A DNA stretch of 64,000 nucleotides from a virus, in IMG/VR virus record IMGVR_UViG_3300008450_000005, positions 1-64,000 of that record, one strand, 5' to 3'. Within the stretch, counting starts at the first letter, position 1, and each line of letters opens with the position of its first letter. Of the stretch, positions 37,060 to 64,000 are shown one piece after another. A program made the position numbers and the translations under genes. The notes under the pieces were generated by a model that was not told the origin of the DNA, searched no databases, and saw only the letters and a list, made by a program, of their open reading frames with translations.

Positions 37060-37582
37060 CAAATATAGCCAATATCTTCCGGACAATCCGGAATTAGCCT
37101 ACAATGCCACTGGTGTTAAATTCCAGTCATCTGTAACTTCGCCCTTTAATAAAGAGGACCTGTACACGGATGAAGCAGTAGCATTGGCAAGGTCGGAGAG
37201 CATGGGATGTTCGGGTGCAAGAACTATTTTGGTTTCCAGTACCGGCCAATATAAATATGCGCCATGCTCAGATATTACTACGTATAGAACTATTTCTAAG
37301 CAGCTAACACAGACACAGGAAGAAAGACGTTATTACGCATTCTTCCCAGACGAGAATTTAACCGATATCAAAAATAGCATCAACGACCGTGTTTATTCTG
37401 GATTCGACTATAAAGAGGTCATTCTAAAAAGAAGCATGTCAAATGTTTTCTTCAGAGATCCTGTCAAGGACTCGATCTTAGCTACTTTTAATCGTGTTAT
37501 TTTCGGTGTGATTGAAAGCGTAAAGGAAATAAAAAACTATTTTAATTATACAGTACCAAGAAATAACAAAAGGGTGTTCTAA
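37052..37582 (+). CDS. Hypothetical baseplate-associated protein
   Basis: 176 aa overlapping the gp6-like gene; contains A.ARS..MGCSG...YAPC. Confidence 0.6.
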   Translation: MVNKYSQYLPDNPELAYNATGVKFQSSVTSPFNKEDLYTDEAVALARSESMGCSGARTILVSSTGQYKYAPCSDITTYRTISKQLTQTQEERRYYAFFPDENLTDIKNSINDRVYSGFDYKEVILKRSMSNVFFRDPVKDSILATFNRVIFGVIESVKEIKNYFNYTVPRNNKRVF

Positions 37583-40500
37583 TGTCGAATTCAGTCAATT
37601 TAAACTTAAGATTTTTTGATAAGAGCGGGAGCCCTTTAAATTTCGAATACGTCGGGCCTACCGGATCATTCCCTAGTGTAGACAACTCGTCCTATTTTAT
37701 CACCAGTCTTTCATCGTCCTCACCCGGGCAGATTAATCTTTCTACCCTAGGGTCAGGATATTTTGAAATTAACCATTTCGATAGAAATAGCTATAGTGTG
37801 CTGGCCTGGTCTCAGCGGATTGAAGAGTGGCTAAATTTCGGATCAAGCATCACCGTGGTTTTAGAAGTTCAAGGCGGACAAAGCATTGAAATCTATGTTG
37901 ATTCTATTTCTATATCGGCTAACTACTCTACCCTTAATTTTACCAGATACAATGGTAACCTGATCGTTAGTTCCGATAGAACGGTAACTGTTAAAACCGC
38001 TTATCGTGATGCACCAGGTGGTTATTATACTGGATTTATTTACTTTGACAATGTCAGCGCAGGTCTATTCGAGAACGAGCAGATCTTTATCATCCAGGAA
38101 TTCAAAGACACTTCAGGTAATACTATCTTTGGATATCCACACTCTGGATTAACCGGAACTTCTGAGCCTGTCCAATGGAGAACACGCTGGAATAATAGCT
38201 CGTACGGTAATGTCGATGTAACAGACATTATTTTCACGTATCAGATCACGGAAAGCGACCCTACAATCGGCGGTGATCCTAGTATCAGCAATTACCCCAA
38301 CCTCATCTATACCATTCCCGTTGAGTCTACCGATTCTTTGGCGGATGGATTTGCAGTTACCTCTTATAATCTTGAAGCTCCTATCACAATTAGTGCAGCT
38401 ATCAATTCATCAAACGTAGCTGCAGACGTTTATGAGAGACAGCTTATCATCGAGCAAATAGTTGGTTTGACCGGAGCAGCTCCTCTAAAAATTGCGGAGA
38501 TAAATTTCTACGGACAGATTGAAAGCGAGGATGAAAGATTTTCCACCCTGCTAGAGAATCTGGGAAGAACCCTAACAGCGGATGAAACTATGGTTTTCAG
38601 AGACCATGACCCATCAGAACCCTTGCCTAACTACGTTGAGCTAAACGTGAAGCGTAAGGAGCTTATGGTGGCTGGTGAGCAGATATTCCCATATCTCGGA
38701 TCGTATAAAGGTCTGATCAATGCTCTAAGATTTTTTGGATATCAGGACTTAAGGATCAAAGAATATTGGCTGAACATAGATTACAAGACCAATACAACTC
38801 CTGGGGTATCAGTACTTGAAAATCAGAAATATCTAGACTCTCTTAAAAAGCTTCCATACTCTAATTCTTTCATGATTGATGAAATCATAAACAGCCCTAA
38901 TTCAGGGAAGTTTAGGATGGTTCAAACATATGGCCCGGATCAGGATGGAGTTTATCGATTAGATGTAGCAAATGAGGATACTATCGTTCCCAGCGGAACG
39001 TATAAGAAAACAGCCTTATTCGGACTATACTATGACCTGAATAAGGTAACCAATACAGAAAACGAATTCGGCTATCCGATAGTTGATGACTCTTTCTTAT
39101 TTTCACAGGAGGAAGTTTTAGTTAAACTTTTCTCTCTTAAGCAAATTCTAAAAAACAAGTACCTCCCGATTAATGCGAGAATAATCGATATTACCGGAGA
39201 GGGAATCTATTTTAACGTTTATAACACTAAAAGCTGGTCCGATGTCATGGACCGCTTTGAGATCAACCTAGGAAATGATGTTGATTTCATAGTTAATCCA
39301 GATTTCGGATATCTTGAAGATCTACGAAATTTCGGTGTACGATATTCAACGTCATCTATCCAGATCCCGATGAATTATGGTGCTACTGGAGGATTTGATG
39401 TAACACTAGCCGGATCTACCGGTGGAACTTCTGCTGGCGGGGCTTTAAAATTTAGTGGCTTTTCTGGTAACAATCCAACAATAGAATTGACCCGTGGTAA
39501 AGAATATGAATTTACCAATCTTACTGGTTATGGGCTTTACATTACTACTGAGTCTTCTCTTACACAGGTTGACCCGCTTGGGATCATTTCTAACGGAGCA
39601 ACAGGAGGACAAATTATTCTGAATGTTAACCCACAGGAACAAAACTCACTCTATTATTACCTGGATGTAAATTCGGTTGTACTTAATGGACAGATCAATA
39701 TTGTCAACGCTTCAATTTCTGATCTTGGCAATACCATCCTTCCTTTAGACAGCGGACAACAGTACACGGGAGACCAGAACCTGGCAATGATTCAGGCTAT
39801 CTCTGAATTCTATACTCTTAAACAGAATGGACAGATAGTCGAGTTTATGGATTCCAAATGGGATCCGGAGGCTTATATCAATCCAGACACAGGAGAAAGA
39901 TGGGTGAATCCTGTCGGAATGCCCATAGTTTTTGAATATGACGTTGATCAATGGATGTGGGACGAGATGGACGTAAATTGGAAATCTCTGTATTCACCAT
40001 ATAGTTTAGGACTTACCGGTTCGACACCAACTAATTTCAATTCTATTTTAACTTGGAATAACATTAATTTCGGAAACTGTAACGAGATTGAATGGATCAT
40101 CACAAAAAGCGCAAGCAGTGCAGGAAGTCCTTACTATTTCTCATATCGAGGTTACATAATGGATTTCTATAGACTTGCTCACTTTGTTCCTTATACGGGC
40201 ATCTACGACGTGCAATGCAACGTTTATGATGCCAACAACTCAATCCTAAGAAAGATTGAAAAGCAAGTCTTACAGGTTGCACCCAAACTAATCGATCTTC
40301 AGGCTTGGACAAGATACAGAGAAAACGAATTTTATACCTGGGACTACACCATTAAGGATTGGGATACTTACGAGTCTAAATGGCTTTATCCTGCCGAGGG
40401 TATGACCGAAAAACAATTGGAGCAAAGACTTCCACCCGATCTTTTGGACTTTGCCTTTTATGGTAACAATGCTTCAGAGGGAGAAGAAATAGATGTTGAA

Positions 40501-41649
40501 ATAACATCAGGAGGTCGCGGTGCAACTGGCTCATTCAGCATCTCACAGAACGTATTAACCGTAACTTCTATAGGCGGTCCTAGAATAACAGGGACTCAGT
40601 TTGGATTATGCACAGTAACCACAACAACACCTCATGGACTTTCCAATGGAGATTATGTTTACATCAAAAATTCTATCGAGGTTGTCAACGGAAAGTGGCA
40701 GATAATCTACGATAGCACACTTGCTTCTAATCAATTCAAGATACCAGTAGTACTTTCACCACAAGCTGGAATCCTTGTTACCCTTTCGCAGATCACTGTC
40801 GACACATCTCTTTACCCGAACATGCAAGTTGTAGGTGAAGGGACTATATCGGTATCTGTGAATGGTAGGGTAATTGGTGCTACGGCTGGAGGATCTACGT
40901 TACAATCGACTGCAAATTCTATAGTAACCCAGATAAATTCAGTCATCACACAGCCTGATTTCTTTGCTACGACTTTTAATCCAGCTGCAAATCCTTGCTC
41001 GATTCTAATTTCATCACCATCTACTTCTGGTGCAATCTATAATGGATATCCGCTATCAATAACTGCTACCGGATCTATTCAGGTAGTTTCACAAGATATA
41101 ATTTTAAATGGTGGACAAAACATCGACAACGTGTATGTTCAATGGGACGAAAGCCAGGAGGAACTTCCAAATGCTAATTTGAAGTATTGGGGAACACAAA
41201 ATCTCGTCTGGAAGAATTTCAACGAGGTTACGTGGGACGCAGGATATGCTCATTCGTGGTGGGATTTTGAATACAATAATACTTGGTTGGGAGGATTTGA
41301 AATCCACTCTTCCTTGGTTGGAGATAGTATCAAAGTTGATACAGGAAAACAAACAACTCCGTTTGCTAACGGAGTTACTTTCGTTGGATTTGGTGCTACT
41401 GGGGCAAGCGGGTATTTAACGCTAGGTCAGGTGGCAGATCAACTTAACGCATCTACCGATCCACATATTACCAATTTCTACTATAGAGTTTTCCCGTCCG
41501 GATATGATGACTTTTTGACCATCACCGGACCTAGCAATCGTGTTATCACGAATGTATCATCACCAACAGGTACCTACCCTGCTCCTCCATCAGTTTTGGG
41601 AGCAAATCCAGTACTCTGTGTTGATTTCACTTACGCAACAGGACCATAA
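37582..41649 (+). CDS. Large baseplate/tail structural protein (gp7-like wedge with inserted domains)
   Basis: 1355 aa; GSYKGLINALRFFGY..L.IKEYW resembles wedge proteins; Trp-periodic segments. Confidence 0.6.
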   Translation: MSNSVNLNLRFFDKSGSPLNFEYVGPTGSFPSVDNSSYFITSLSSSSPGQINLSTLGSGYFEINHFDRNSYSVLAWSQRIEEWLNFGSSITVVLEVQGGQSIEIYVDSISISANYSTLNFTRYNGNLIVSSDRTVTVKTAYRDAPGGYYTGFIYFDNVSAGLFENEQIFIIQEFKDTSGNTIFGYPHSGLTGTSEPVQWRTRWNNSSYGNVDVTDIIFTYQITESDPTIGGDPSISNYPNLIYTIPVESTDSLADGFAVTSYNLEAPITISAAINSSNVAADVYERQLIIEQIVGLTGAAPLKIAEINFYGQIESEDERFSTLLENLGRTLTADETMVFRDHDPSEPLPNYVELNVKRKELMVAGEQIFPYLGSYKGLINALRFFGYQDLRIKEYWLNIDYKTNTTPGVSVLENQKYLDSLKKLPYSNSFMIDEIINSPNSGKFRMVQTYGPDQDGVYRLDVANEDTIVPSGTYKKTALFGLYYDLNKVTNTENEFGYPIVDDSFLFSQEEVLVKLFSLKQILKNKYLPINARIIDITGEGIYFNVYNTKSWSDVMDRFEINLGNDVDFIVNPDFGYLEDLRNFGVRYSTSSIQIPMNYGATGGFDVTLAGSTGGTSAGGALKFSGFSGNNPTIELTRGKEYEFTNLTGYGLYITTESSLTQVDPLGIISNGATGGQIILNVNPQEQNSLYYYLDVNSVVLNGQINIVNASISDLGNTILPLDSGQQYTGDQNLAMIQAISEFYTLKQNGQIVEFMDSKWDPEAYINPDTGERWVNPVGMPIVFEYDVDQWMWDEMDVNWKSLYSPYSLGLTGSTPTNFNSILTWNNINFGNCNEIEWIITKSASSAGSPYYFSYRGYIMDFYRLAHFVPYTGIYDVQCNVYDANNSILRKIEKQVLQVAPKLIDLQAWTRYRENEFYTWDYTIKDWDTYESKWLYPAEGMTEKQLEQRLPPDLLDFAFYGNNASEGEEIDVEITSGGRGATGSFSISQNVLTVTSIGGPRITGTQFGLCTVTTTTPHGLSNGDYVYIKNSIEVVNGKWQIIYDSTLASNQFKIPVVLSPQAGILVTLSQITVDTSLYPNMQVVGEGTISVSVNGRVIGATAGGSTLQSTANSIVTQINSVITQPDFFATTFNPAANPCSILISSPSTSGAIYNGYPLSITATGSIQVVSQDIILNGGQNIDNVYVQWDESQEELPNANLKYWGTQNLVWKNFNEVTWDAGYAHSWWDFEYNNTWLGGFEIHSSLVGDSIKVDTGKQTTPFANGVTFVGFGATGASGYLTLGQVADQLNASTDPHITNFYYRVFPSGYDDFLTITGPSNRVITNVSSPTGTYPAPPSVLGANPVLCVDFTYATGP

Positions 41650-41651: not shown

Positions 41652-43490
41652 ATGCCAGATCCAATATTGAATATTTTACAGGGAGAGCAGGTTTACTTCG
41701 ATCCAGATTCTACGGTCGGAGCTACCGCATCTTATTCCTGGACGTTTCCGGGTGGAACCCCAGGAAATTCAGCATCACATTACCCTGTGGTGACCTACAA
41801 TAATATTGGCGATTATAATGCAAGTTTAACCGTAACTGATACCTACGGTACCTCAAGAACTTTAACTAAATACCAGATAATTAGTGTAGATAAGAACGTA
41901 CTCACAGTCAATTTCACAGTTCCTGGATCACCGGTTGAAATGAACGAATTGTTCACCATCACCGACACATCCTCACCGGTTCCAACCGATTGGGAATGGG
42001 TATTACCAGGTTTTGCAAATATTGTTGGTGTACAGAACCTAACAAACTATCAATACGGAGACTGGTATGACGCTACAGGCACTTATCTGGGTGATCCCGG
42101 GGCTACTGCTTCAATTCCGATTCAACTGACAGCAGCGACGAACTTCGACATAGGAACGAAGACCCAAAATATGGTTGTTAAAAAATTAGGAGCTGGTCAG
42201 GATGAATTTGATCTTAGCTACGAATGGGTTTCCGTTTACGGTCCAACCGCTTATGTGATGACCTCGTCATTGGGAACAACCGCTGGCGCTCCATTTACAT
42301 TAGGCTCTTACGGTCTTACAGGAAATTCAACTGGATTTATTGTTGTCGTGGATCTGACTGCTATGAGAACTTTGGGCCCGGCAGTACCAGGAACCGGATT
42401 TCAAACGAATAATTATTTCCATTCTAACGAAGAGATTGCCCAATATACCGGACACTTTGGCTATGTTGAATCGACGTCTCCATATCCATTTGGATTAACG
42501 GGATATGTGATTGTAGATTCTTCTGCATACACCACAGCTTTATTTTCCCTTAATACACCGATCACAGCTGGACGCTATATGCTTAAAGACTATGTTCTTG
42601 GTAACAGAGGGGGAATGTTCGCTGACCGTGGTGCATTTCTTAGAACCAAATGGAACGCAGTTTCTTCAGGCGGACGTGCTTGGCCTTTAGCTCTACTGAA
42701 TGAGTTCCTGAATATGGCAGCAAAAGTAAGAATGCTTTCTCGGGACGTTGAAGAACCTTATTTGTCTGTTGGCGGAACGGGAGGAGGATTCCCACCTTTA
42801 CTTTACACGAACATTTTGTCGTCCGTGCACGGTAACTTTACGATTTCAAATTATGGGGTAGTTGCTATTCCTAGCTCAGGATTTATGCTTCCCAGAACAA
42901 ACCCCGCCGGAGACCAATACTTTAAGATTTATATCACTGTACACTGGTCCAATGGTGTTGACCTGGTTCAAACCAATTTTGATGCGTCTGCAGGATTGTC
43001 CGGTAATGACGGATATGGATTTTTTAAAGCCCAGGACGTAGGTCCAAATCTTGGTATTGCATCGGTGTTAAACCAGTCGATAACAAGTTATTTCACACCC
43101 ATCGGTAGTGGTATAATTCCAATTAGGGTTAAAGAAAGCGAAGATTACAATCCTTATTTCGTGTCTACAAATTTTGTCTATGGATTAACGGGATACAATA
43201 ACAGATCTGATTACCACGGTATTCTAATCGAATCAATTGACGCAACAGTTACTAGAATAGAGATCACCGATAATTCATCACTCGTACAATGGACAGTTGT
43301 CGTAGCACCTTCAACCGGTGTAGGACTATCCGGACCTGCTGCATTCCCAAGCGATTGGCTGAATCCATCTAACGCAAGGTTCAGGTATGCTTCATGGCTT
43401 GGTTGCGTAGATGATCAGACCCAGCTTAACCCGATGCCTGGTATCATCCCAGGTCCCAGCGGAGGATGGTATTATGGTGGAAGTTTATAA
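41652..43490 (+). CDS. PKD-domain virion protein
   Basis: SYSWTFPGGTP...PVVTYNNIGDYNASLTVTD is a PKD signature; a second degenerate PKD follows. Confidence 0.75.
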   Translation: MPDPILNILQGEQVYFDPDSTVGATASYSWTFPGGTPGNSASHYPVVTYNNIGDYNASLTVTDTYGTSRTLTKYQIISVDKNVLTVNFTVPGSPVEMNELFTITDTSSPVPTDWEWVLPGFANIVGVQNLTNYQYGDWYDATGTYLGDPGATASIPIQLTAATNFDIGTKTQNMVVKKLGAGQDEFDLSYEWVSVYGPTAYVMTSSLGTTAGAPFTLGSYGLTGNSTGFIVVVDLTAMRTLGPAVPGTGFQTNNYFHSNEEIAQYTGHFGYVESTSPYPFGLTGYVIVDSSAYTTALFSLNTPITAGRYMLKDYVLGNRGGMFADRGAFLRTKWNAVSSGGRAWPLALLNEFLNMAAKVRMLSRDVEEPYLSVGGTGGGFPPLLYTNILSSVHGNFTISNYGVVAIPSSGFMLPRTNPAGDQYFKIYITVHWSNGVDLVQTNFDASAGLSGNDGYGFFKAQDVGPNLGIASVLNQSITSYFTPIGSGIIPIRVKESEDYNPYFVSTNFVYGLTGYNNRSDYHGILIESIDATVTRIEITDNSSLVQWTVVVAPSTGVGLSGPAAFPSDWLNPSNARFRYASWLGCVDDQTQLNPMPGIIPGPSGGWYYGGSL

Positions 43491-43508: not shown

Positions 43509-46500
43509 ATGCCCGCTAACGATTTAAAGATAACACAGATAAAGCTCGACAACAAGAATAGGGTTTGGGCAGTAGGACAAGATATTTCTTATTTTGATGG
43601 AGATAATTGGACATACCTAAACTATCAAAATTCTGCTCTTCCGAGCAACGATCCATATTATCTAGATACCCGGTGCTTAAGCATTGATGCTGATCAGAGC
43701 AAATGGATTGGATGCGCTAATGGACCATGCATTTCAGATGTTGCGGTCACCAAATTATATGGTCAGGACAATGAAAAATCAGAATCCTGGACATTCACCG
43801 AACTTGGCTTCACCGGAGGATACTATCAATGTCCGGTAATCGAGGCAAGCCCTTATGGATCAGAAGTTCTAGCTTTCATCAATTCTTTGAATGATGGCAT
43901 AGGTGTAACCGGAACAACAGGATTTATTGGAGCCACCGCGGGTAATTTATTAATCTATAACACAGAGGCGAGGGAGTGGAGAAATATTCTGGGAGAAGGT
44001 AATACTATTCCTCGTGTTTATACTATTCAGCCAAGAGGTTTAGATGGATTCTCTTATGAATATTGGATAGGAACATCTAACGGTATCTGGATCCTTAAAG
44101 ATTCTTATTACCAGACAGAAAATTTATACTCGGAAAGTATCTACGTACCTCACGTTAAGGTTCTTACCACTGAGAATTCTGGATTACCAGGAAATCAAAT
44201 TAGAGCAATCGAATTTGATGAAAATGGTAATGTGTGGATAGGCACAGAATCTGGATTTTGCTTCTATGATTTTAACGAATGGCAAGCATGGAACTCATCA
44301 TCATTTACCAATCTTTCGTCTAATCTTATAACTACCATAACTGTTAGACCCAATGGTCATATATTCTTTTCAGCAGGGGAAGGGGAATTGAAGCAGGGAA
44401 CAGGACTTTACCATTTTAATGGATCATTTCTTACCAATTTCGATGTATCAACGGGCGATTTACCAAACGACAACATCATCTCCGCTGAACTGATATCCCA
44501 AAATACACAAAATGATAATTTCAGGAATTACACAAACGATCTCTGGATATCTTGTTATAATGATTTAGTTCAGTTCTCATACGTAATCCCACACGTAAGA
44601 GCTACATCGGATTACGAGGGCGCAACTGGATGGGATTTTGTAGACTATACCAACACAGATTCACTCAGATTACCAAAAGCAAACAAATACACTTGGGATT
44701 ATCCATCGTGGAGCGGGGACGACTTCGATTATTTGATGAGACAGCATCCTGGGACAGATCCTAGATTGCTTTTCGTAAACTCTGATTTAGAATCTATTAT
44801 CACTGGTGAGGTAGGAAATCCTAATTTTTATTCTGCTGGACCAATTCCTTTATCCTCTCAGATCCAAACTGCAGAAGGTCTAACCGGATCTTCTTTCCTC
44901 GTTAGTGCAACAGGAGGAACCGCATACATCACAACATCTACCACCAATAATGGTAATGTAATAGTTGGTGGTTATACTAATGCAGCTGGCGTTTATTTAG
45001 GATATAAGAACGGATCAAACTATGTCCAATTCGCAAACCCGAATCCAACCAACGCAGGATCACCTGTTCCGGCTGGGTCTAATTTGAATGCTGGTTTCTT
45101 GGCTTATTATTCAAAATCGGGACAGCCTTTAGGTGCTATTCCTTTTAGAGGATATTCAACTAAGGTACTTTCGGTTTCCTCTGGATTCAACGACGAATCA
45201 ATCTTCGTAGCTGGAACTTTCCGCAGATATTTGGAAGTTGGCAAATTTGTTTATAATAACGTATATCCGAACGCTGCATCTCTAACAACAACAGGGATCA
45301 CCGGTCCAACCGGAGGACCTATTGGATTGTCTTCTTTATATTACCCAGGTATCACTGGTCCAACCTTTGAGTACCCTTGGATTCTGAATGGAGCAACCGC
45401 ATCAGTGAGTGGTCCATTTATTCCAGACCCTTCCTTGATCTCAAATGATGCAGAGTCATTATTCGTTCTAGAGATTGACCACAATCTTGGATCTAGCATG
45501 AGCTTTGGTGACATCAACTTTGGAGTAACCGGTGGATTTGAAAGATCTTATAAAGTAAAAAACTTTAGATACTTCCCGATTGCTGCAAGCGATTTTGATG
45601 CTACTGGTGTAACTGGAATCTTTGGCTATTTGAATACCGAAAGCATTCATTTGGATGCAGGGAATAAATGGGTCAATGTGGTTCTTGGTGTATCTGGAGG
45701 ATATAGCACTCTAGCAAACCAGTGGGAATTTACTAACGATCTTCCTAATAATAACCCATTTGAATTTTCATCATACTCATCAGGATATCTACAATCTGGC
45801 AGTATGATTCAGCTTGATAGAGATTTGAATCTCTATGATAGCTTCATAACAGCAGGAACTGGTAACACACACTTCAACCAGTCAGTTCAGGATTCATCTT
45901 CAAACACGATTCTGGTAACCGGATCTACAAACCAAAATTTCACATTCGGTAGTACTGGTTCAACTGCAGCTAACAATCTTGGACACGAGCCTTTCTTCTT
46001 CGTAACTGACAGAAATGGAACAGTGACAAGTAAAGGAATCCAGATTGTTAAAAGAGGTTTCTACGATGACGAGAATTATGGCGTCTTTGCTTTCTCACAT
46101 GAAGGATTATATTCTGTAGCTACCATAACTGAACAGAATCCTAATTATTCAATAAACCAAGGATCATATTCAGTTACTGGAGGCACTTCATTCTACGTTC
46201 AAAGATTCACTCCGAATGGAATGATTAAGAAAGAATTTTCTTATCCGATCAATGATTCTTTTGCTTTCTTAGACGAGTCTATCATCACCGAGAGAGATGA
46301 ATACGTTTTGAATATGAAACAGTTTGGATCGACAGGTACAACTGGCTATTACAAAGCTTATAAATTATCTTTATCTGGTACTTTGAATGATACTCTAGAT
46401 TTAACATCCAACCAAATTGAGGTTGCAGGACTATCTCTGGCTTACGATGCAGATTCTAATCTTTACTATAGCATAACTCATTCAGGAGCAACTGGAGCAA

Positions 46501-54000: not shown

Positions 54001-54642
54001 ATCGGTAATGGTCCATTATCAGAATTCAGCGTGCATATTAATCATCCTTCACTTAATAACGGGAATGGAACTGCATTCCAGGAATTAGTTAAGCCTAATT
54101 ATGCAAACGGTACTATCGTTTATCCTGCGTTCAGACAATCTCTTTATTTCGAGACCGACGTAAATCAGAATGATTACTACAAACAGCTAGGTTACAGACA
54201 GGTTAATACTCCTTTTGTTACCGGTCCTTCTGGTTCTAATAGAACAGATTCGATGTATCCGATGAAATTGGGATTTGAACAGAATGACGAGTTCTTAATA
54301 GGTAAATACTCTTGTGGTTCTTATCTGTTCTTAGCACCAGCTACTAATTCGTCGATCCAAGTTCCTGGAACAACTTCTTTATCTACAACAATTATTGGGA
54401 CTGGAATTTCCAATTCAATTATCATCCCAGTGATATTCCAATTCAGACCAGTGGACAAGCTTGGTTACATAGGAGGATTTAGATTAAATGGTAATTTAAC
54501 TAATATTACTTATTCAAAAACTATCGGAATTGATATCAAACCCAGATATTCTGACGTTTTCTCTTTCGATGTAAAAGTAACAGGAAGATTCAAGACCGAT
54601 GATTTACGCTCTCCATTAACAAATGTCTCACCGAGTCTATAA
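51001..54642 (+). CDS. Large virion structural protein (tail region)
   Basis: 1213 aa; coiled coils plus an FN3-like beta segment. Confidence 0.6.
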   Translation: MAATQNSISSLIAQFLRLQTNALEIIQGLNQVATSTNESVEIQILDENGTPRVVSVPGFGYLQNQIDRLDNNVEALAGLGTNASTVRNADGTYAQIYKAQPLQDPPALIGLNVPKTFGTKNNWFFESFLTPLLYVQIDLTNQISALSENDRLMVENADRILCRRIIANTLTDTERTFFDSNLKGRNDLTYTEFVTELTNAGINYFVDEDILQLPLRTLANVGNFSVLGVYDDVVTVYDASGTARQETRRNYSLDTLNYTDVTSNIQGGKTLDVNDLLATEDGSRYRIVSIDRSQGSVQVTRVAGYQPISIGENSLSFVSQQFSPKYIDVNVGYNERQGIFFKTLDDNFNLIGSQWSTGVTFWSSELTITTPLGVQSLETYYNTQVADIGQIFFGMAKERKVSAIQGLIPNTPVVNTTDFKVVQINKQLTDNTSTTQLNDLLAQKSQLKSEISELDQAINRVRSQVNTLQGSVGVSSLPTSGLSLTSPVSTVQTSGLSSLVAITQPSFNQVSDPSQVNSLQSQLNSLTIQRNQKSQLYDSVVQSIRTTSLDVPQLSEPPKYRVRGFWPIPEPKESPETGPQAVIQFQIRYRYRSQSGAVQPTEQIEYQDLNGERKTGAFSNWVVIKTEVRKKIYNIESGTYVWADENPDNADVVNINQLDIAITKGEQLEIQILSISEAGWPDNPLLSPYSNSVIVTFPENLTTESQLTTVLNNSTDQALVIMKQELSAQGLNSHLSEQFETNNRTFYHTANGIASGFFGNDGTVINLYQKLVDLQNQVDALRALVNQQVGELAVEIISSDLQIPAGSVAPGSTVSLEVQPFSNVYQNPLTTDAGKISTTTLSLKISNVAASPLELSSLLPGSMSVKVSDSIPPLIGYAQNLRYEDVPVSQRSLEPADIIGPTGSPDNMSTSQAPPYASANLYSQWMYPRYKSVGGDRTLYVINDAAYASNYDYAGAVPVNGNQLIPHDPTLISPSGSLSGGSNASVWSGGYTGGTGARTPIGNGPLSEFSVHINHPSLNNGNGTAFQELVKPNYANGTIVYPAFRQSLYFETDVNQNDYYKQLGYRQVNTPFVTGPSGSNRTDSMYPMKLGFEQNDEFLIGKYSCGSYLFLAPATNSSIQVPGTTSLSTTIIGTGISNSIIIPVIFQFRPVDKLGYIGGFRLNGNLTNITYSKTIGIDIKPRYSDVFSFDVKVTGRFKTDDLRSPLTNVSPSL

Positions 54643-54660: not shown

Positions 54661-57600
54661 ATGGCAGGAGAAAAATTATACGATAGTAATACTTCGTTTC
54701 AAATTCTTAGAACGAATCCTAAACTAACTGGGAATTTCCGCATCGCGGTGGATTCCCAGAATAAAGTTTGGCTGAATTCTTTGGATGTAAACACCACGCT
54801 ATCAAATAATAGGTACAAAAAATTTGAGGTTACAGGTCAGCAATCTTATGCTACTGATGTCTTCAATTTTTTTCAAAGAGGATCAACCCCTAACGAGGTT
54901 ATCTTCGAGTCTGCCAGTCTAACAGACGGAAACCTACAGTCGAGCACCACCTTCAACGATCAGTATGATTTTTTCTACGCGTCTGGTGCTTCAACTCTGG
55001 TTGATAAAAACTATCCGGAAAATTTCAGATACTTTGCTCCTTTATGGATTAAAGATGTTATTCCTGATTACTTTGTTATATTCAAAGTTCCAAACCCACT
55101 TTCTTTTCCTTACACAACAAACGTAACAAGTATTGTTGCTGGGAAAACATATAAAGTGATCCAAAACCCTACTTCTTCTGATGTATTTTCTGTTAGCTAT
55201 GGAATCGATTTATCTGGTAATCCAGTAACTTACACAGCGGGACAGTTTATCACCGGTGTAGATTCTTATTCAACTTATACAATCATTTCTGGACAGGGTA
55301 ACGTTGCGCTTTTTGACGAGCTTGCATTTTATCCTGAGGTTAGCGATGTTTCTGCGTATTTCGAAGATCAGATACTTCCTAATTGTCAGAGTATTGCTAC
55401 TTTTGATCTTAGAGAGGGAACAACAATCGGAAATTATATCCGTAATCTGTACCGAGACCAGAATTATAACCAATCTCCGGTTACTTTCGGAATGGGCAAT
55501 GCCTACACGTATTGGAATGGTGTAAACCTGACCTCCGGAGTGCTAGGACAAAAAGGAGAAATCCTTGATTCTTATTTTAGAAGCACGAGTTCGATCCCTA
55601 TGATCGACTTCGAAGCCACAATGACTGGAGGATTTGAAAGAAATGGGATAGTTTGTGCCAATCTTTTGAATCTAGAATTCTATTTTGATGACGACGATTC
55701 TGATCTTTACACGATCAATCGTTACTTCGGAGCATACGTTTCTAGAAATGATACAGGATCTTTTAAATTAAATGGTGATTTCTTCTGGGATTACAAAGAT
55801 GAACCCGGAAATTTAAATCTACCCAAACCCACCAGAGACAATTTAGGATATTACTATAACAATGTTAGTGCTTTCCAGAGTTCAACCGGCGGTGTTCGTC
55901 TCTATTACGAGGGAGCAACCGGATGGATTCCTGGTGCATTGGACATTAACCAGAATAATCCAGATAAGCTTTTCTATATTACTGATAAGCTGGATAGATT
56001 ATATTCTTTGAAAAGAACACCGGAAGCTTCCATTCCAGATTATGCTGAATTCGGACCTTGGCTGGGCATAACAGGAGGATTTGGTACCACAGGTTTTGTT
56101 GGTGCGACTTCTGGAAGTCTAGTTATTGGTGATCAGCAAGTAAATCTATTGGACTTCACCGGTCCAGACGATAAGTTAGGATCATTCAACGGATCTACCC
56201 CTGTTGATGCAGGATGCTCTTATATCTCAATCACATTTAAGAATGAGATACCAGTTAGCAAAAAAATAGTTTTTAGAATTGCTTGGCCGGAAGGAAGCAG
56301 AGGAACGCTTCAAGAAAAATTCGATCTCGTAGAGAATGGGGATTTTTCCGGATCGCAAATACGCTGGATCCCTGGTGATTCTTATGCCGTTGGTAATGAT
56401 TATTACTTCAATGGTTTAATTGGCCAAGGTGGAACCGGTGATATTGCTAAAAGTTTTTCCGGAGCAGCTGGAGAGATTACTTCGATTGGCTGGATTTCAG
56501 CACCATCTGGGACTGATTCAGTTATTCGCTTAGTCGTACCTGGAAGTTACGGAAACAAAACTTACAGAGTTTCTGTCCACGACGATTATCAAATTTTTGC
56601 TACAAGCTATGTGGGCGATTGGAATACAACCTCATTTTATCCCACCGGCGTAATTGTTTTATATGGAGGAGAGTATTGGCAATCGATCGCCTCTGTTCCC
56701 TCTACTATCACGGGAAATCTTACCCCCGATAGTGATCCAGTTTTTTGGCAAAAATACTATTCATTAAGTGATACGTCACTTTCTGATACAATCTTTTTGG
56801 ATGGTAAGGACGCTACTTCAATTTCAGGTCCTGTCCATTTTAGAGGAGGAACTGATTCTAACCAGATTAGAGTAGTTTTTGGCAAGGAGAATGATCTTTC
56901 CGTTGTAAAAGGTAATTGGATCGAAACCACCACAGGATTCTCAATAATCAAGCAGGTTGACAAATACGTTGACTCACCTTCATTCACGAACGGATTTCCT
57001 AGCGGATGGAATGGATACAATAGTTTATCTGTAGCGGTTTTGGCTGATCAAAATGCCATCGTGAGTTTCGGTACCAATAGGCAATTCAACGCCTTTAAGA
57101 TGACCGAACTTTCAACAGGTGTATTTACATTTTTTGACGTTAGAGATCTTGATTTCGATTTCTATTCATCTGTTTATGCAACGACTCCAACACCGGAATT
57201 CTATAGATATTTCCAGCTTATTTCTAATCAGGCAGGAAACATCATTAATGGCGTAAAATATCTGGTTCAGACTGGTTCTATCACTTACAATGGAACGGTT
57301 TATACACCTGGTAAAATATTCATAGGAACCAGCTCTGCAAATCTTTTCATAGATAACATTCAGAGCGGACCAAAATCAATTGTTGTACCGGCGGAATTTA
57401 CTAAGCTTGTTTATAGTGATTCTTCGGCAACGTATAACGTTCCAGTTGATGCTGAGAACAATATTGGGAAATTCCAAGGATTTATCGGGATTGAATCAAT
57501 TTCTACCATAAATCGTGATCCCAATCTTACACCAAAAGAATATCAATTCGAAGGGAATAAACTCACGAATGAGTATGATTATCTCGAAGAGAACTATACG

Positions 57601-60132
57601 ACCGGCAGAGCCAATTTTTCTCGTATCGTTCCGATCGTAAATAAATGGGTTTATACAGGCGGTACGGATGCACGTGGAAACATGTACAGACTAAATCTGA
57701 CACCTGCTTTCTCCACTACAAACTTTTCACCTAGTTTAGAGAAAGAAACACCAGATCCTAACTATTTAACCCACGAATGGTTTGTTTTAGAGGGATTACC
57801 ACAGCAATACCCTCCTTCAGCTCTAGAAAATCAAAATAGCTATCTACCATATAAAGTAGATCTAGATACTTTGAGAAGCGCTGATCCTACTAATTCTCTG
57901 TATTTCAGCGATACCTTCACAGTCGAGGGAACAGACTATCTAGGGGCTTATTCGAATTCGACTTTACCAACGAAAGAATTTTTCACTCCTCTATATTTCA
58001 ATAAATCCAATGGTTTTTATGAAACACTATTCAGAGGGGTAAAGATCCAATTCAGAAAAAGATCAACCTTAACCAACCCGACTAACGATCTTGATCGGTA
58101 TGTTCCTAATTATCGTGGATACGAAGGATATAAATTTTCAGCTATCTTACGGATAGTAGAAGAGGATAGCACCTCAATCCAAAGTCCGGTACAGTATGAG
58201 GTAATCGAAAATGCAACCCAGCAATTTGTTCTTCTGGTTTGCTACGTTACGATTAATGACTACCGTGCTAATGTATTAGGACACACCGGTGCAACCGGTT
58301 TTTCACCGTATCTGGATTACCTCTTGATGTATTCTCTGATAGACAAGAAGAAAAATAGCGGTATAGGTTTAACCGCTAGCACACCTCAAGAACTTTATAA
58401 GATAGGAGACACAAAGCTCAGCGTAGCTCTTGATTTGAGCGTGACGTCTGGAAGCTCAGTTACTTCGTTCACTGATCCGGGTGTTATCTATTCGATTCCG
58501 AACCCAGATTATGATAGTGATTTGAGAGAAGAGATTAATCTTTTCTACCCACAAGGAGCAAATACTCTGATTGGATCAACCGGGGCTGGAAGTTTTTCGG
58601 TTCCTAGCAACACATCAACCTATCCTTGGCCAACCGGAAGATCTATTTCTTTTGTTAATTTTGGACCAATTGATTCTCTCAATTATACTTTTAATATTCC
58701 GTTCTCACCAACCTCACCAGCGACAATCCCTCTCGGATCAAAGCTCACTTATGAGGATAAACCGGTTTTCCAATTATCGGGCGGAGAGAACTACTTTGAT
58801 TTCATTATAAAAAGGATATCCACTGCAGAGATTGCAAAAAGGTTTAATAACTTAAACCCCTATATCTCATATAATTCGTACTATTGGGATTCAGCCACAT
58901 CTTCTACTTTGGTAGATACCCAATCATTGAACATGAACTTCTTGAAGCCTAGTTATCTTTCAAGAAATACTGGTTTAAGACCGGCTCCATCAGTTCAAGG
59001 ACCATCTACCCTGGGTGTTTCTACGATTACAACTTACGACATTGTTGATGGTGGAATACAATATGCTTCTGACCTAGCTCGTTATAATGGTGGGTATGAG
59101 CCTTTAACTCGCAAAAGCATTCTATTCAAAAACGATAAGACTGATACTATTGTTGGATACACCGCTATAGATCTTTCTTTCAGAAATTGTACTTTCGCTC
59201 CTAACCAGAAGGGATTTGGACTAATCAAGAATTTGTGTTATACCAAGGTGAGCACGAATAAGGGATTGCTGGACAAGGCCGCTAATCTCCCTCAGGGACC
59301 TGTTTATCCATTGGTTGGTTTAACCCCAGTGGCTAAAAAGGATTTCTCGATCTTCCAATCCAATTGGGAATCTGGCTATTATAATTTATTCAGCGACGTT
59401 TTTTCTGAAACACCAGTTGCTGGAACCAGGTCTATGAAAGAATATAACTCTTTCTTTGGCTCGAAGATGATGAGAACCCCTGATAATATTTTGGCTTCTA
59501 CATTCATCACATTGCCAGTTTCACGTTTGAGCGGTAATAGTAATGTTGATGAAATAAATCTCGCTGCAGCAGCTGCAGTTACCCAGATCCAAAATATGCC
59601 TATCACATCCAGCGGGACTGGAATAGGACAATTGGACACTGCTTTTGTTTCAGTAGATCTTCAGGTTCTTGATCTGAACATATATCCTGATGTTGAAGTA
59701 TTCTATCAGCTTCTTGATTCGAACCAATTATTCGGTATTATCAGATTAGATAGAATTCTAAGAAGATTCTTGTTGAATGCTGGAGTAAAGAATGTTTTCC
59801 AGCAGAATATGATATCTGAATTTGGTGTGGGCAATCCAAACAGCATTGAAGATGATATCAGAGAATATATCGCATTGAACGTAATTCCGATCTTCACTGC
59901 ACAATCATTTAACCTCTATGTCAAGCAGGTTTCCGATCCATCCACAGATAATGGCGGTCTGCGTTACGTAGTAGGTGATATTTTAGGTAAGGATAGATAC
60001 AAGGAAGGCTATAAACCGGAGGATGGTTTAAGCCTGGTTAAAATAAGTGAATTGGTTTACACGTTCACTTATGATGTACCAGCAACCTCTAATTGGTCTC
60101 TAAACTTCAGTTTTGGAATACAAAAAATTTAA
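54661..60132 (+). CDS. Very large virion structural protein with internal CBM5/12-like module
   Basis: 1823 aa; WNTTSFYPTGVIVLYGGEYWQS...PDSDPVFWQ. Confidence 0.6.
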   Translation: MAGEKLYDSNTSFQILRTNPKLTGNFRIAVDSQNKVWLNSLDVNTTLSNNRYKKFEVTGQQSYATDVFNFFQRGSTPNEVIFESASLTDGNLQSSTTFNDQYDFFYASGASTLVDKNYPENFRYFAPLWIKDVIPDYFVIFKVPNPLSFPYTTNVTSIVAGKTYKVIQNPTSSDVFSVSYGIDLSGNPVTYTAGQFITGVDSYSTYTIISGQGNVALFDELAFYPEVSDVSAYFEDQILPNCQSIATFDLREGTTIGNYIRNLYRDQNYNQSPVTFGMGNAYTYWNGVNLTSGVLGQKGEILDSYFRSTSSIPMIDFEATMTGGFERNGIVCANLLNLEFYFDDDDSDLYTINRYFGAYVSRNDTGSFKLNGDFFWDYKDEPGNLNLPKPTRDNLGYYYNNVSAFQSSTGGVRLYYEGATGWIPGALDINQNNPDKLFYITDKLDRLYSLKRTPEASIPDYAEFGPWLGITGGFGTTGFVGATSGSLVIGDQQVNLLDFTGPDDKLGSFNGSTPVDAGCSYISITFKNEIPVSKKIVFRIAWPEGSRGTLQEKFDLVENGDFSGSQIRWIPGDSYAVGNDYYFNGLIGQGGTGDIAKSFSGAAGEITSIGWISAPSGTDSVIRLVVPGSYGNKTYRVSVHDDYQIFATSYVGDWNTTSFYPTGVIVLYGGEYWQSIASVPSTITGNLTPDSDPVFWQKYYSLSDTSLSDTIFLDGKDATSISGPVHFRGGTDSNQIRVVFGKENDLSVVKGNWIETTTGFSIIKQVDKYVDSPSFTNGFPSGWNGYNSLSVAVLADQNAIVSFGTNRQFNAFKMTELSTGVFTFFDVRDLDFDFYSSVYATTPTPEFYRYFQLISNQAGNIINGVKYLVQTGSITYNGTVYTPGKIFIGTSSANLFIDNIQSGPKSIVVPAEFTKLVYSDSSATYNVPVDAENNIGKFQGFIGIESISTINRDPNLTPKEYQFEGNKLTNEYDYLEENYTTGRANFSRIVPIVNKWVYTGGTDARGNMYRLNLTPAFSTTNFSPSLEKETPDPNYLTHEWFVLEGLPQQYPPSALENQNSYLPYKVDLDTLRSADPTNSLYFSDTFTVEGTDYLGAYSNSTLPTKEFFTPLYFNKSNGFYETLFRGVKIQFRKRSTLTNPTNDLDRYVPNYRGYEGYKFSAILRIVEEDSTSIQSPVQYEVIENATQQFVLLVCYVTINDYRANVLGHTGATGFSPYLDYLLMYSLIDKKKNSGIGLTASTPQELYKIGDTKLSVALDLSVTSGSSVTSFTDPGVIYSIPNPDYDSDLREEINLFYPQGANTLIGSTGAGSFSVPSNTSTYPWPTGRSISFVNFGPIDSLNYTFNIPFSPTSPATIPLGSKLTYEDKPVFQLSGGENYFDFIIKRISTAEIAKRFNNLNPYISYNSYYWDSATSSTLVDTQSLNMNFLKPSYLSRNTGLRPAPSVQGPSTLGVSTITTYDIVDGGIQYASDLARYNGGYEPLTRKSILFKNDKTDTIVGYTAIDLSFRNCTFAPNQKGFGLIKNLCYTKVSTNKGLLDKAANLPQGPVYPLVGLTPVAKKDFSIFQSNWESGYYNLFSDVFSETPVAGTRSMKEYNSFFGSKMMRTPDNILASTFITLPVSRLSGNSNVDEINLAAAAAVTQIQNMPITSSGTGIGQLDTAFVSVDLQVLDLNIYPDVEVFYQLLDSNQLFGIIRLDRILRRFLLNAGVKNVFQQNMISEFGVGNPNSIEDDIREYIALNVIPIFTAQSFNLYVKQVSDPSTDNGGLRYVVGDILGKDRYKEGYKPEDGLSLVKISELVYTFTYDVPATSNWSLNFSFGIQKI

Positions 60133-60135: not shown

Positions 60136-61662
60136 ATGGCTGAACCAAGTATACTATCATTTAATTATTCCGACGATCAGTTAGAGATTGTAAGAAAATT
60201 AAATTACAATTTCGAGCAGATCTCCGCCGCAGATGGTGGGGTTCAAGGACCAATCGGCCCAACTGGTGCTACTGGATTAATAGGACAGATCGGTCCAATT
60301 GGTCCAACCGGTAATACCGGTCCGAGAGGAAGTAGATGGTTTGTAGGCGGGATTGAAGCACCGACTGGAGGATATGGAGATGTAACGGTTGAAGGAGACT
60401 ACTGGATCGATACCGATGCTATAGAAAAAACTCTTTATGTTTTTGGTCCATCGGGATGGCTTGATACAGGCTATGACTTGATACCCGAGGACGAGTTTAA
60501 GTTTATCCCTGATCTAATTACAGCCACTGGTGCAACTTCTAATTTTTTGGCAATTGTCCAGAACACTCTTTTACCATCGTCAAACACATTCGTTTTAAGC
60601 GACGGTAATCCATCTATTGAATTAACCAATCCCGATTATACAAATTTCCTGATCACGACAGACCCTGGGGTTAATCAGTATCCGATCATGGAGTTCTCTC
60701 GCAGCGATGCGACTATAATTGGAGCTTCAGGTTATTTCAAAAGACCAATTTGGAGATGGACTGGCGGGGATAATGACTATAACTTGGCTTTCGCTGTCCC
60801 TAGCGATAGGCTAACTATTTTGACCAAGTCGGGAATAACCGGAACCGTCACAAATAAGGCAAATTTCCAGGCGGATGATTCACTCTTTTTGACCAGCAAA
60901 TCAACAATAGATTTCACTTCAGGAGGTCCTTCATTCTTCAATACTCCCGGATCTTTGGGTATTACAGCATCAAATTTATCACTAAATAGTACAAGGCTGG
61001 AAACTGATGTTGATTTGAAAATCCAGACTATACCTGGTAAATCTCCATCAAATGATCCAGTTTTCGGTAATTACTCTCTCTGGATAGACAACCCTTCAGG
61101 GACATCCTTATTCTTGGGAGCAACCGGTATTGCCACAGGTGGCAATCATTTAATGGTTGCAAAGAAGGATCAAACCAATTTACTCGAAGTTAGAAGCGAT
61201 GGAGTATTTTACGCTAAGAAAAGAACCACATACAATAAAAGGCCGGTTTTCAATTCTTCAAATTCTATCTCAATAGATTATGGAAGTGGATTGATAATCT
61301 CCTGGTATTTCATAACTGCATCTAGCCTGTCCTACAATAATACATTCCTTATTGATGTAAATCCGGCCAACGATATCGGTGTGGCCGTTAACGTAAGATC
61401 TGGAGACGGTGATAACGTTATGAACTTGCTAGAAAAATACCAGTCCATGAAAATAAACGTTCTAACTAGCACGAACGATCCGATGAAAAAAATCAAATAT
61501 CTAGGATATTACACTGGTTCTCCACCATTGGTAGGCCAATATATAAAATTTGGCTCAGGATTGAACCAGGCTGAATTGGAAGTTCTCAGAGGAGACGGTA
61601 TCACAGCAACTAGCAGTAGAATTCTTTATTCATCGAATCAGGGGTCGGGTAGATTGCTTTAA
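60136..61662 (+). CDS. Collagen-like tail fibre protein
   Basis: KLNYNF helix, about 10 Gly-X-Y triplets, RGSRW, GDYWI. Confidence 0.7.
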
Positions 61663-61883: not shown

Positions 61884-61891
61884 GATATATA
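61884..61891 (+). promoter_or_regulatory. Putative late promoter GATATATA
   Basis: 5 nt before ATG 61897. Confidence 0.6.
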
Positions 61892-61896
61892 AATAC

Positions 61897-63504
61897 ATGG
61901 CCGATTTAAAGCTTGTTCGGATTACAAAAGGAGATACCCAAACGGTACTCATAAATAAATTAAATCAAAATTTCGGAAGGATACTTTCTTCCGGCGGAGG
62001 AACCTATGGAAGGACTGGACAGGCAGGAACAATTGGCAACCCTGGGCTAACAGGTCCAACTGGAGACTATGGATCACCTGGTATCAGAGGATCTAAATGG
62101 TTTGTCTCGAATCTAGAACCACCCACAGGACTAACCGGATATTATGATGGTGACCATTGGGTAGTATCAACTGATGACTTCAAAGATTACATTTTAACTG
62201 GCGGGGTTTGGACTCCAAGCGGTTTATTTCTAACCGGAACTCAGTTTTTCACCAAAATCGAAGACATCAAGGATAGAACCGGCGATCAGACTAAAAATGC
62301 AATCGTCGAATTCACATCTACCCCATCTTCAACAACCATGGTTTTGTCTGATACCACCACGAGTACTTCGTATGGTAACAGTCAATATTCAAAATTCCAA
62401 ATATCCACTATTGGATCAGCTGGTAGAAATGTCCTAGAATTCTCTAAATCTGAATTACAGGACGGAACCGGTGCGGAAGCTTCGAAACATCCATATTTTG
62501 CATGGGAATTTGATGCAACACCGAATGATTACAGTCTAGTTTGGGGAATGACCGGCGGAGGATTCTTTTTGTCTGCTTCTGATTTGGCTATGATATCCCA
62601 AACTTCTGACTTTGAAATAGGAGTTACCGGAGCGATCATTTTTGATAATTCAAGTTCTCTGTTTCAATTTTCTAAAGAAAACATTGAGGTATCAACCGGG
62701 TCAGATTTTTATCTTTCATCAACAAGCACAAGTTTAGGAGCTACCGGTCTATCACTCTCCGGCAGTTTAAAGATTAACTCGGATTCAGCAACGGTTCCGG
62801 GAGTTACTTCAGATTCGTATATTACTGACGGTGGAAATGTTAGAATAACCTACACTACACCAAGCTCACTCAATCTACAGGATTCTCAAATCTCCTTAGT
62901 TAACGTAGTCCACGATTCAATCACAAACCCACTGTTCTTAAGCACAGCAGACGGCGAAACGAGATTTGCAAATTTATCTGAATCATATAACCAGGACCTA
63001 ACCGTTTTATCTGGCGCAACGGGAGCATATACCCGTGGTGGCACTGGATATTATATAAATTGGGCATCGGTTTCTCCAGCACCGGTCGGACCTACTGCCG
63101 ATCGTTCTCTTGCATACTTTAACACCGTAATAGTAAGTCCTTCGGGATTAACAGGTGGTGGAACAGCGGGCAATCCATTTAATGGGGTCAGCTTTTTAGG
63201 CACTTACGGATCAGGAATGAATAATAACCCTCTTGCTAAGATGATCGAAGAAAATAGATCATTCTCCCTCACTGTAACAGGGACTACGCAAGACCATTCA
63301 TTTAAAGCTGTTGGGATTGGAACTTATTCTAATCCAGCATCTCCTTTCCCGAATCCGTCAGTTGGTTCCGAATGGCAGATTTTACCATTTGCGTCACCGG
63401 CTGTTACTTTCCATGTCATGAGATTACCAAACAACGGAGCAACTGGTAGCTGGAGGGTTTTCTTCGAGGCTAATAAATTTTCAGGATTACTTTACGAGGC
63501 ATGA
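61897..63504 (+). CDS. Collagen-like tail fibre protein (paralog 2)
   Basis: GDTQTVLINKLNQNF, Gly-X-Y run, RGSKW, GDHWV. Confidence 0.7.
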   Translation: MADLKLVRITKGDTQTVLINKLNQNFGRILSSGGGTYGRTGQAGTIGNPGLTGPTGDYGSPGIRGSKWFVSNLEPPTGLTGYYDGDHWVVSTDDFKDYILTGGVWTPSGLFLTGTQFFTKIEDIKDRTGDQTKNAIVEFTSTPSSTTMVLSDTTTSTSYGNSQYSKFQISTIGSAGRNVLEFSKSELQDGTGAEASKHPYFAWEFDATPNDYSLVWGMTGGGFFLSASDLAMISQTSDFEIGVTGAIIFDNSSSLFQFSKENIEVSTGSDFYLSSTSTSLGATGLSLSGSLKINSDSATVPGVTSDSYITDGGNVRITYTTPSSLNLQDSQISLVNVVHDSITNPLFLSTADGETRFANLSESYNQDLTVLSGATGAYTRGGTGYYINWASVSPAPVGPTADRSLAYFNTVIVSPSGLTGGGTAGNPFNGVSFLGTYGSGMNNNPLAKMIEENRSFSLTVTGTTQDHSFKAVGIGTYSNPASPFPNPSVGSEWQILPFASPAVTFHVMRLPNNGATGSWRVFFEANKFSGLLYEA

Positions 63505-64000
63505 AAATTAACAATAAATATATTAGAACAGGCGACCCTGCTTCTACAATCATCGATAAATCGAATTTCAACTTCGATCAAATTCTAGCGAGTGGATTTG
63601 GTGGAACCGGCTTCAATGGAGTTAAGGGACCAACCGGCGTAATAGGAAAAATTGGGCCTGATGGACCACAAGGAGCTACAGGTGTAAGAGGTTCTAATTG
63701 GTATCAGCAGAACACTTCTCCTTCAACAGCAGGAGCAAGTCCTTATGATTACTGGATAAATACTTCTAGCACGAATCAAGACCAGGTTTATTACTATGCC
63801 GGACCAACTTCTGGTTGGGTTGATTCGGGAGCATCTCTCAGAACTAATGGGGTCTTTGCTGGTGTTCAATCACTTTTGGGACCAGAAGGAGCTACAGGTT
63901 ATTCCGCAATTGTTATTAACGGCACTGGCGGAAGCCAAGCCAGAACTACTTTTGTCTATTCTGACACTGTATTTTCGGCTATCAACGCCAATCCCAATTT
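63501..64000 (+). CDS. Collagen-like tail fibre protein (paralog 3), truncated by window end
   Basis: Hand-translated from an ATGA overlap: MKINNKYIRTGDPASTIIDKSNFNFDQIL...GPTGVIGKIGPDGPQGATGVRGSNW; open to the window edge; not in the ORF track. Confidence 0.8.
   Translation, partial: MKINNKYIRTGDPASTIIDKSNFNFDQILASGFGGTGFNGVKGPTGVIGKIGPDGPQGATGVRGSNWYQQNTSPSTAGASPYDYWINTSSTNQDQVYYYAGPTSGWVDSGASLRTNGVFAGVQSLLGPEGATGYSAIVINGTGGSQARTTFVYSDTVFSAINANPN

Follow-up and report, generated by a model that had tools for sequence, protein, structure and literature searches.

Why should ten consecutive genes for tail and fibre proteins, most of them non-homologous, repeat one and the same four-residue word? 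The question is raised by the first 64,000 nucleotides of the IMG/VR virus record IMGVR_UViG_3300008450_000005 (in the following, the window), which are the start of a 116-kb viral contig with a completeness of 42% according to CheckV. From position 37582 to the end of the window, a module of open reading frames (ORFs) for the distal tail is rich in the motif Gly-x-Thr-Gly (G-x-T-G, with x for any residue), and an earlier note made from the sequence of the window had proposed that this motif is a recognition site, for example for a phage glycosyltransferase. Because of the motif statistics, the position of the motif in loops, the conservation and relatives of a phage-encoded enzyme and the linkage of this enzyme family to Gly-x-Thr proteins elsewhere, we lean, at somewhat better than even chances, towards G-x-T-G being an O-glycosylation sequon similar to that of the SgtA/BclA3 pair of Clostridioides difficile.

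A Thr-specific excess in the distal tail

The ten ORFs in the window contain 65 G-x-T-G motifs in 8,453 residues (9, 4, 15, 3, 3, 3, 7, 6, 11 and 4 in gene order), which is to be compared with 7.0 expected from composition-preserving shuffles at contents of 9.1% Gly and 9.2% Thr. The hand counts of the earlier note, about 65 in total, proved exact for every ORF, and its rough expectation of about 6, at some 9% of each residue, was close to the shuffled value. Including the remainder of the tenth ORF and an eleventh protein beyond the window (the proteins are numbered F1 to F11 in gene order), the whole module amounts to 77 motifs against 7.5 ± 2.7 expected, spread over 11-12 proteins, whereas the other 91 ORFs of the contig are at expectation with 7 against 6.1. 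The claimed restriction to the distal tail module is borne out by these figures, and a recount agreed with the single motif noted for the capsid protein and with none for the gp6-like baseplate protein; the other head, neck and inner-tail ORFs upstream of the module hold at most one motif each. Likewise, BLASTP found paralogy among the fibres F8, F9 and F10 only, in line with the statement that the proteins are mostly non-homologous.

The enrichment survives whole-protein as well as local block shuffles. Blocks of 10, 20, 40 or 80 residues lead to expectations of 8-12 with a maximum of 22, those of 10 residues to 11.8 ± 3.2 compared with the 77 motifs seen, and permuted words of the same letters (GT.G, G.GT, TG.G etc.) occur 7-25 times each. 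A composition artefact is ruled out by the two kinds of shuffle and the permuted words. Among the 134 G-x-x-G words, Thr occupies the third place in 65, the other G-x-x-G words being at expectation, and G-x-S-G is not enriched (9 vs 7.4). A repeat or recombination signal at the DNA level was rejected as well: the 65 motifs of the window are encoded by many codon strings, the commonest 12-mers being present only twice, and since the codons vary synonymously, selection acts at the protein level and no DNA repeat is involved. The excess of G-x-T-G is Thr-specific, order-specific and located at the protein level.

As had been stated before, most of the motifs lie outside collagen runs: 42 of the 77 are isolated single triplets, 19 belong to two-triplet units and 16 to runs of at least three triplets. 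Isolated motifs, i.e., those with no Gly at -3 or +6, thus number 42 compared with 6.2 ± 2.5 in shuffles, and such single triplets are incapable of forming a triple helix. With the collagen-like runs masked, G.TG ranks top of 8000 spaced patterns (z = 21.8).

Predicted position of the motif and its history in the clade

AlphaFold2 models were obtained for F3 (43509-47123, plus strand; predicted local distance difference test score, pLDDT, 77.5), a 1204-residue tandem beta-propeller protein with 15 motifs against 0.98 expected, and for F9 (61897-63504, plus strand; pLDDT 71.8), a 535-residue fibre paralogue with 11 against 0.87, eight of them isolated. Motif residues are predicted to be in coil in 56 of 60 cases in F3 and 39 of 44 in F9, together 95 of 104 (91%), as opposed to 52-54% coil overall. 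The F9 motifs at residues 242, 281, 373 and 381 form a four-residue turn between two strands, those at 814 and 940 of F3 are likewise modelled as strand-turn-strand, and other motifs fall into long loops, including three low-confidence segments of F3, two of them at widely conserved sites. This placement holds in the beta-propeller, in beta-sandwich hairpins and in beta-rich regions of short strands. One repeat fold shared by all carriers is ruled out by the non-paralogy in BLASTP (apart from F8-F10), the propeller of F3 and the lack of any significant match of the F9 model among PDB folds. As modelled, the motif occupies loops or turns of different folds and is not a buried rung of one repeat fold; mapping onto predicted structures, as suggested beforehand, left the proposal of the earlier note intact, as the composition control had done. 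In Foldseek, F3 best matched the glycan-sensing periplasmic propellers of Bacteroides hybrid two-component systems (5e-17), which makes it a candidate for a carbohydrate-binding, receptor-recognition tail protein.

Positions in turns and loops, often directly between two strands in the models, would also suit a purely structural motif, i.e., a tight turn or a one-triplet collagen remnant which undergoes no modification. In such a unit, Gly at either end would give the backbone its freedom, Thr would contribute a beta-branched residue, and the beta-rich tail proteins would have inherited and reused the whole. The motif is flanked by hydrophobic or beta-branched residues such as are found where strands end, an excess of Gly at -3 and +6 indicates kinship with the collagen periodicity, and Thr is not replaced by Ser, all of which a structural element would explain. 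A known case of this kind are the chlamydial Pmp proteins, whose repeats GGA(I/L/V) and FxxN are over-represented short words that are read as rungs of one beta-helix fold. Both cases feature short words abundant across divergent, beta-rich surface proteins; the Pmp words, however, belong to one fold and one family, whereas here the motif is found in unrelated folds and a modifying enzyme is linked to it. Moreover, other beta-rich virion proteins of this phage are unenriched. We consider a purely structural motif rather unlikely, and the comparison of related phages bears on it from both sides.

For this comparison, orthologues were drawn from about 150 related loci. F1 featured 599 motifs compared with 70.5 expected in 78 clade loci (8.5 fold), the F2 family 130 with 30.4 (4.3 fold), the F4 family 148 with 69.4 (2.1 fold), F5 205 with 18.1 in 81 orthologues (11.3 fold) and F6 122 with 42.9 in its clade orthologues (2.8 fold), the F3 orthologue family being enriched 10 fold. 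In addition, 120 homologues of F3 contain 1346 motifs (143 expected) and 150 representatives of the F9 family 509 (94 expected). The gp6-like baseplate wedge gene (35344-37059), directly 5' of the ten-ORF module, belongs to a family that is depleted of the motif (3 vs 10.3 in 55 orthologues), which argues against a purely structural role of the motif. In a complete 319-kb relative (G005), the module holds 43 motifs against 5.4 and the other 270 ORFs 14 against 13; avoidance of the motif in non-target proteins was found neither there nor in the contig studied here (7 vs 6.1). Two further ORFs of this relative carry the motif, namely one of 570 residues (G005:C1:274330-276042; 4 vs 0.55), by length and position probably the capsid protein, and an unplaced protein of 1117 residues (G005:C1:306812-310165; 5 vs 0.55). 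Which proteins bear the motif may vary from one clade member to another.

An alignment of 59 F3 sequences revealed 68 columns with the motif in at least one sequence: six columns have it in half of the sequences or more, 16 are confined to subclades, and the other 46 show it rarely; homologues without the motif feature ordinary loop sequence at these columns. Judged by this conservation and turnover, much of the signal is old and shared by orthologues, with sites also gained and lost. The several sites kept across the whole F3 family accord with a structural element, the many lineage-specific gains do not. Of the earlier proposal of a recognition site acquired by convergent gain, the first half stands, as the motif behaves as a recognition site, whereas convergence does not hold for much of the signal in view of the F3 columns and of F1 to F7, which are syntenic throughout the clade.

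A glycosyltransferase as putative partner of the motif

A search for glycosyltransferases, as the earlier note had suggested, brought up one fitting gene, though beyond the window and 24 kb downstream of the module (contig 92852-94078). Its product of 408 residues matches the glycosyltransferase family 2 (GT2) domain PF00535 with 31.8 bits when the genome was searched and with 30.8 bits when the protein itself was scanned (cut-off 23.3). Hits to tetratricopeptide repeats (TPR) are weak and below the cut-offs, the profile matches designed TPR proteins at 6e-4, and homologues of the enzyme carry precomputed TPR Pfam hits. All five complete clade genomes encode the enzyme with 65-67% identity, compared with only 34-38% for F3, and thousands of close homologues are present in metagenomes. 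Judged by these matches, it is a conserved cytoplasmic enzyme whose catalytic domain is of the GT2 (GT-A) type and whose TPR-like domain is predicted to bind the substrate. When the enzyme-family profile was compared with every PDB sequence, the catalytic part matched only GmaR (7.8e-9), SunS (1e-7) and ThuS (2.5e-5) at E<0.01. The invariant D114-A-D116-D117 aligns to the D-A-D of GmaR and SunS, the H-E motif aligns too, and the alignment with SunS and ThuS extends past the core into the region of the weak TPR-like hits. SunS and ThuS are S/O-glycosyltransferases of glycocins and GmaR is the transferase for O-linked N-acetylglucosamine (O-GlcNAc) of Listeria flagellin, all being cytoplasmic and acting on protein or peptide acceptors. 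The phage enzyme resembles these sole significant PDB relatives in the GT2 core with its D-x-D and H-E motifs, but neither a glycocin precursor, a transporter nor a flagellin context accompanies it and the putative acceptor motif differs. Orthology to SunS is not indicated, with 30.8 bits compared with a cut-off of 350 for NCBIfam TIGR04195.

The enzyme could nevertheless serve another end, for instance the glycosylation of modified cytosine in DNA, in which case its co-occurrence with the motif would be coincidental. Its gene is flanked by those for adenylate kinase and for a protein with gyrase B-type domains (Toprim, HATPase_c), ribonucleotide reductase being encoded just upstream, and phage GT-A enzymes glycosylating 5-hydroxymethylcytosine do exist (bioRxiv 10.1101/2023.12.21.572611). 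These described DNA enzymes are, however, JGT/TarP-like with R...DDD...EDY/F motifs, feature no TPR part and are encoded next to a ThyS or 5mYOX gene (bioRxiv 10.1101/2023.12.21.572611). No TarP/JGT-like hit was obtained with the enzyme profile in PDB, the motifs of the DNA enzymes having been compared by eye only. With a PDB profile search yielding only protein and peptide glycosyltransferases, and with bacterial homologues that adjoin collagen-like and not DNA-modification genes, a role in DNA glycosylation is judged improbable.

The earlier note knew of no description of a comparable system, yet a close precedent exists in C. difficile. There, SgtA, a protein of 358 residues with GT-A and TPR parts which is encoded beside bclA3, moves beta-O-GlcNAc from uridine diphosphate N-acetylglucosamine onto Thr of short synthetic peptides from the Gly-Pro-Thr collagen region of BclA3, one of which offers only a single G-A-T-G site, and accepts Ser in vitro (PMC7157674). 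As one site in a short peptide is sufficient, an enzyme of this architecture can do without a triple helix or an array of repeats. The likeness to SgtA/BclA3, and also to Bacillus BclA, comprises a GT-A part followed by TPR and a Thr acceptor in Gly-x-Thr-Gly on a surface filament, the acceptor role being predicted for the phage; it is a likeness of architecture and acceptor word. Unlike in the spore system, the putative substrates belong to a phage virion, the enzyme gene lies apart from them, and isolated sites, in loops of globular, non-collagen proteins, make up the majority. A literature search on the G-x-T-G motif in phages found no description.

In bacteria, members of the enzyme family are often encoded close to Gly-x-Thr proteins. 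Scanning one genome per prokaryotic species revealed at least 568 relatives of the enzyme, the best 80 of which were examined; these are 35-65% identical, mostly 37-44%, and most align over nearly their full length, with no Clostridioides record among these best 80 of at least 568. In 34 of the 67 bacterial loci with at least 9 kb of sequence, an ORF rich in G-x-T-G (P<1e-6) was present, typically with 20-70 copies, and the distance between motif cluster and enzyme gene was at most 2 kb in 29 loci and at most 1 kb in 25. The neighbouring genes code for collagen-like proteins, a signal-peptide-like N-terminus being present in several of the six that were read, and the linked loci belong to Streptomyces, Polyangiaceae, Burkholderiales, Chlamydiota, Verrucomicrobiota and Bacteroidota. 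Example pairs are contained in loci L282, L283, L287, L292, L295, L302, L312, L316, L320, L331, L342 and L346. By their sequences, these pairs resemble a BclA/SgtA-like system for surface glycoproteins that is widespread beyond the spore-formers, and no published description of such an enzyme with a Gly-x-Thr partner was found for Actinomycetota, Myxococcota, Pseudomonadota, Chlamydiota or Bacteroidota. A purely structural motif would leave this linkage unexplained.

Distant phages show a similar association. The Tunturiibacter phage Tunturi_5 (309 kb) encodes an enzyme homologue of 38% identity, and its sole G-x-T-G-rich protein, a tail fibre (66 vs 4.6), ends 3.7 kb from the enzyme gene. Phage LR756502 (642 kb) has a homologue of 29% identity, with one of its two motif-rich collagen-like proteins (36 vs 3.4) 6 kb away; these motif-rich genes are located away from its F6 orthologue. 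LR756500, MaF61 and Lak-A1 feature no enzyme homologue, and LR756500 and MaF61, scanned whole, contain no protein with more than four motifs. The F6 orthologues of LR756500, MaF61, LR756502 and LR756501 have 0-1 motifs each, and the fibre neighbourhoods of Lak-A1 and, next to their F6 orthologues, of LR756501 and LR756502 are not enriched. The enrichment of the tail module is clade-wide and specific to the present clade. That F6 orthologues and the whole proteomes of enzyme-less relatives are unenriched further argues against a motif kept for structure. A separate observation concerns the podovirus MW202524.1 (L278, 42.5 kb), in which a 761-residue fused, distant enzyme homologue is encoded near the major capsid gene (region 1656-7307), just downstream of it and separated by a single small ORF. 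Next come two further annotated glycosyltransferases, methyltransferase genes are at most 5 kb away, and no G-x-T-G-rich protein was found in this virus; the region looks like a capsid-linked glycosylation cassette.

Apart from glycosylation, G-x-T-G could be a docking site for a decoration or cement protein, for Hsp70/DnaJ or another chaperone, or it could receive another modification of Thr such as phosphorylation. A motif that is repeated, exposed in character and confined to one virion module would suit such a function, and Hsp70 and DnaJ are encoded on the contig. Known Hsp70 sites are hydrophobic and basic and thus do not match Gly-Thr, no candidate binder was identified, and the link to the glycosyltransferase is specific and replicated, which leaves docking or another modification with little probability.

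If G-x-T-G is the sequon that we favour, the enzyme would, during infection, use a nucleotide sugar as donor and attach its sugar to the hydroxyl of Thr. Complete relatives encode further GT2 and GT1-type genes, and such glycosyltransferases may extend the glycan. Targets would be the short collagen-like runs of F8-F10 as well as the single copies in exposed loops or strand-turn-strand units of the other distal tail proteins, eight or more in number. In this way the host-recognition end, but not the head, the sheath or the inner baseplate, would receive a coat of glycans, with protection from proteases, hydration or less unspecific sticking, and tuning of adsorption as plausible roles. The wider proposal is more tentative and just misses an even chance: the isolated Gly-x-Thr-Gly turn would be a portable minimal sequon that, in this abundant clade of aquatic phages, left the collagen-like fibres and spread to exposed loops in about a dozen unrelated tail proteins, one SgtA-like enzyme would coat the host-recognition apparatus, and the pair would also be a widespread bacterial system.

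Several observations weigh against glycosylation of the motif. G-x-S-G is at expectation here despite the acceptance of Ser by SgtA, and six F3 sites persist even in homologues of 34% identity, for which a structural turn would account likewise. In Tunturi_5 and LR756502 the motif is found on long collagen runs only, and because of this the modification of isolated copies is an extrapolation. The enzyme gene is not adjacent to its putative substrates, being 24 kb away here and 31 kb in the complete relative G005, and has a nucleotide-metabolism setting. It is preceded by a sigma-70-like -10 box and not by the GATATATA-type motif that precedes many structural genes. Furthermore, the phage is uncultured.

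To our knowledge, virion glycosylation in tailed phages is established for mycobacteriophages only, and we know of no sequence rule for it. In that case, according to the account of Freeman et al. 2023 given in PMC12619734, phage glycosyltransferases decorate the C-terminal tails of capsid and tail-tube subunits. The phage considered here likewise encodes a glycosyltransferase, for which decoration of the virion is predicted, but its capsid, tube and sheath are unenriched, and the putative signal is a four-residue word in the distal tail; no Ser/Thr-rich C-terminal tail was noted on the capsid or inner-tail ORFs upstream of the module.

Module proteins, phage lineage and implications

All genes of the module in the window are on the plus strand, and their order is kept in dozens of related contigs. 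Right after the baseplate genes, F1 (37582-41649) codes for a distal tail protein of 1355 residues which matches phrog_28177 (function unknown) and contains nine motifs, seven of them isolated, against 0.80 expected (p<0.001). F2 (41652-43490; 612 residues) features an N-terminal PKD domain (PF18911, 1.4e-7) and four motifs against 0.73 (p=0.006), three of which are isolated. The Gly- and Thr-rich F4 (47856-48761; 301 residues) is by itself not significant, with three motifs against 0.87 (p=0.058). F5 (48788-50998; 736 residues) has three against 0.25 (p=0.003). The same number is present in F6 (51001-54642; 1213 residues; 0.48 expected, p=0.015), which belongs to a tail protein family common to many jumbo phages (phrog_29329). 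F7 (54661-60132; 1823 residues) matches phrog_31887, contains seven motifs against 1.09 (p<0.001) and has a short G-x-T-G-rich loop in common with F3.

The fibres follow. F8 (60136-61662; 508 residues) carries six motifs against 0.54 and an N-terminal collagen-like run of about ten triplets, a segment which matches tail-fibre PHROGs. The third paralogue beside F8 and F9 is F10 (63501-64000 in the window and up to contig position 65009), with four motifs in the N-terminal 166 residues inside the window and 11 against 0.66 in the full ORF of 502 residues. Runs of about ten triplets are confined to F8-F10; the collagen profile PF01391 gives 17.5 bits for F9 and 18.6 for F10, the Pfam cut-off being 27.2. 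In all three fibres a conserved N-terminus leads into a collagen-like run, about 10-11 triplets long and in a common register, and this shared arrangement is compatible with a heterotrimer. F11, beyond the window (contig 66097-68493), adds five motifs against 0.4 expected.

The contig fits into the aquatic "moraphage" lineage of jumbo phages because of its capsid identities, its Hsp70 and DnaJ genes and its aquatic relatives. The major capsid protein (8738-10441) shares 45% identity with its counterpart in the huge phage LR756500 and 43-44% with those in Lak phages, and the relatives originate from lake, estuary and marine metagenomes. They were recovered by alignment-based scans; megablast against cultured phages gave no match, and single-protein queries of IMG/VR gave no close relatives. 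For moraphages, Bacteroidota hosts are predicted and four core glycosyltransferase families are described (PMC12619734), and Bacteroidota are the probable hosts of the present clade as well. Beyond the window, at about 65-116 kb (loci L083-L085), the contig encodes Hsp70 and a full DnaJ, ferritin-like, UvdE and MreB-like proteins, ribonucleotide reductase as well as topoisomerase subunits, and matches to a family-B DNA polymerase are split over two ORFs there. Over the whole contig, the word GATA-N-ATA occurs 42 times on the plus strand and twice on the minus strand, often 10-40 bases 5' of start codons (e.g., at 19255, 34954, 47820 and 61884 of the window), and resembles phage promoter motifs of the T4-late type.

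If G-x-T-G is a sequon, glycosylated phage proteins would be predictable from sequence alone, and part of the means by which large aquatic phages protect or tune their receptor-binding machinery could be explained. The motif and its enzyme would further provide a pair of tag and catalyst for cytoplasmic O-glycosylation of recombinant proteins. Moreover, the bacterial pairs suggest that BclA-like glycosylated collagen filaments extend far beyond spore-formers.

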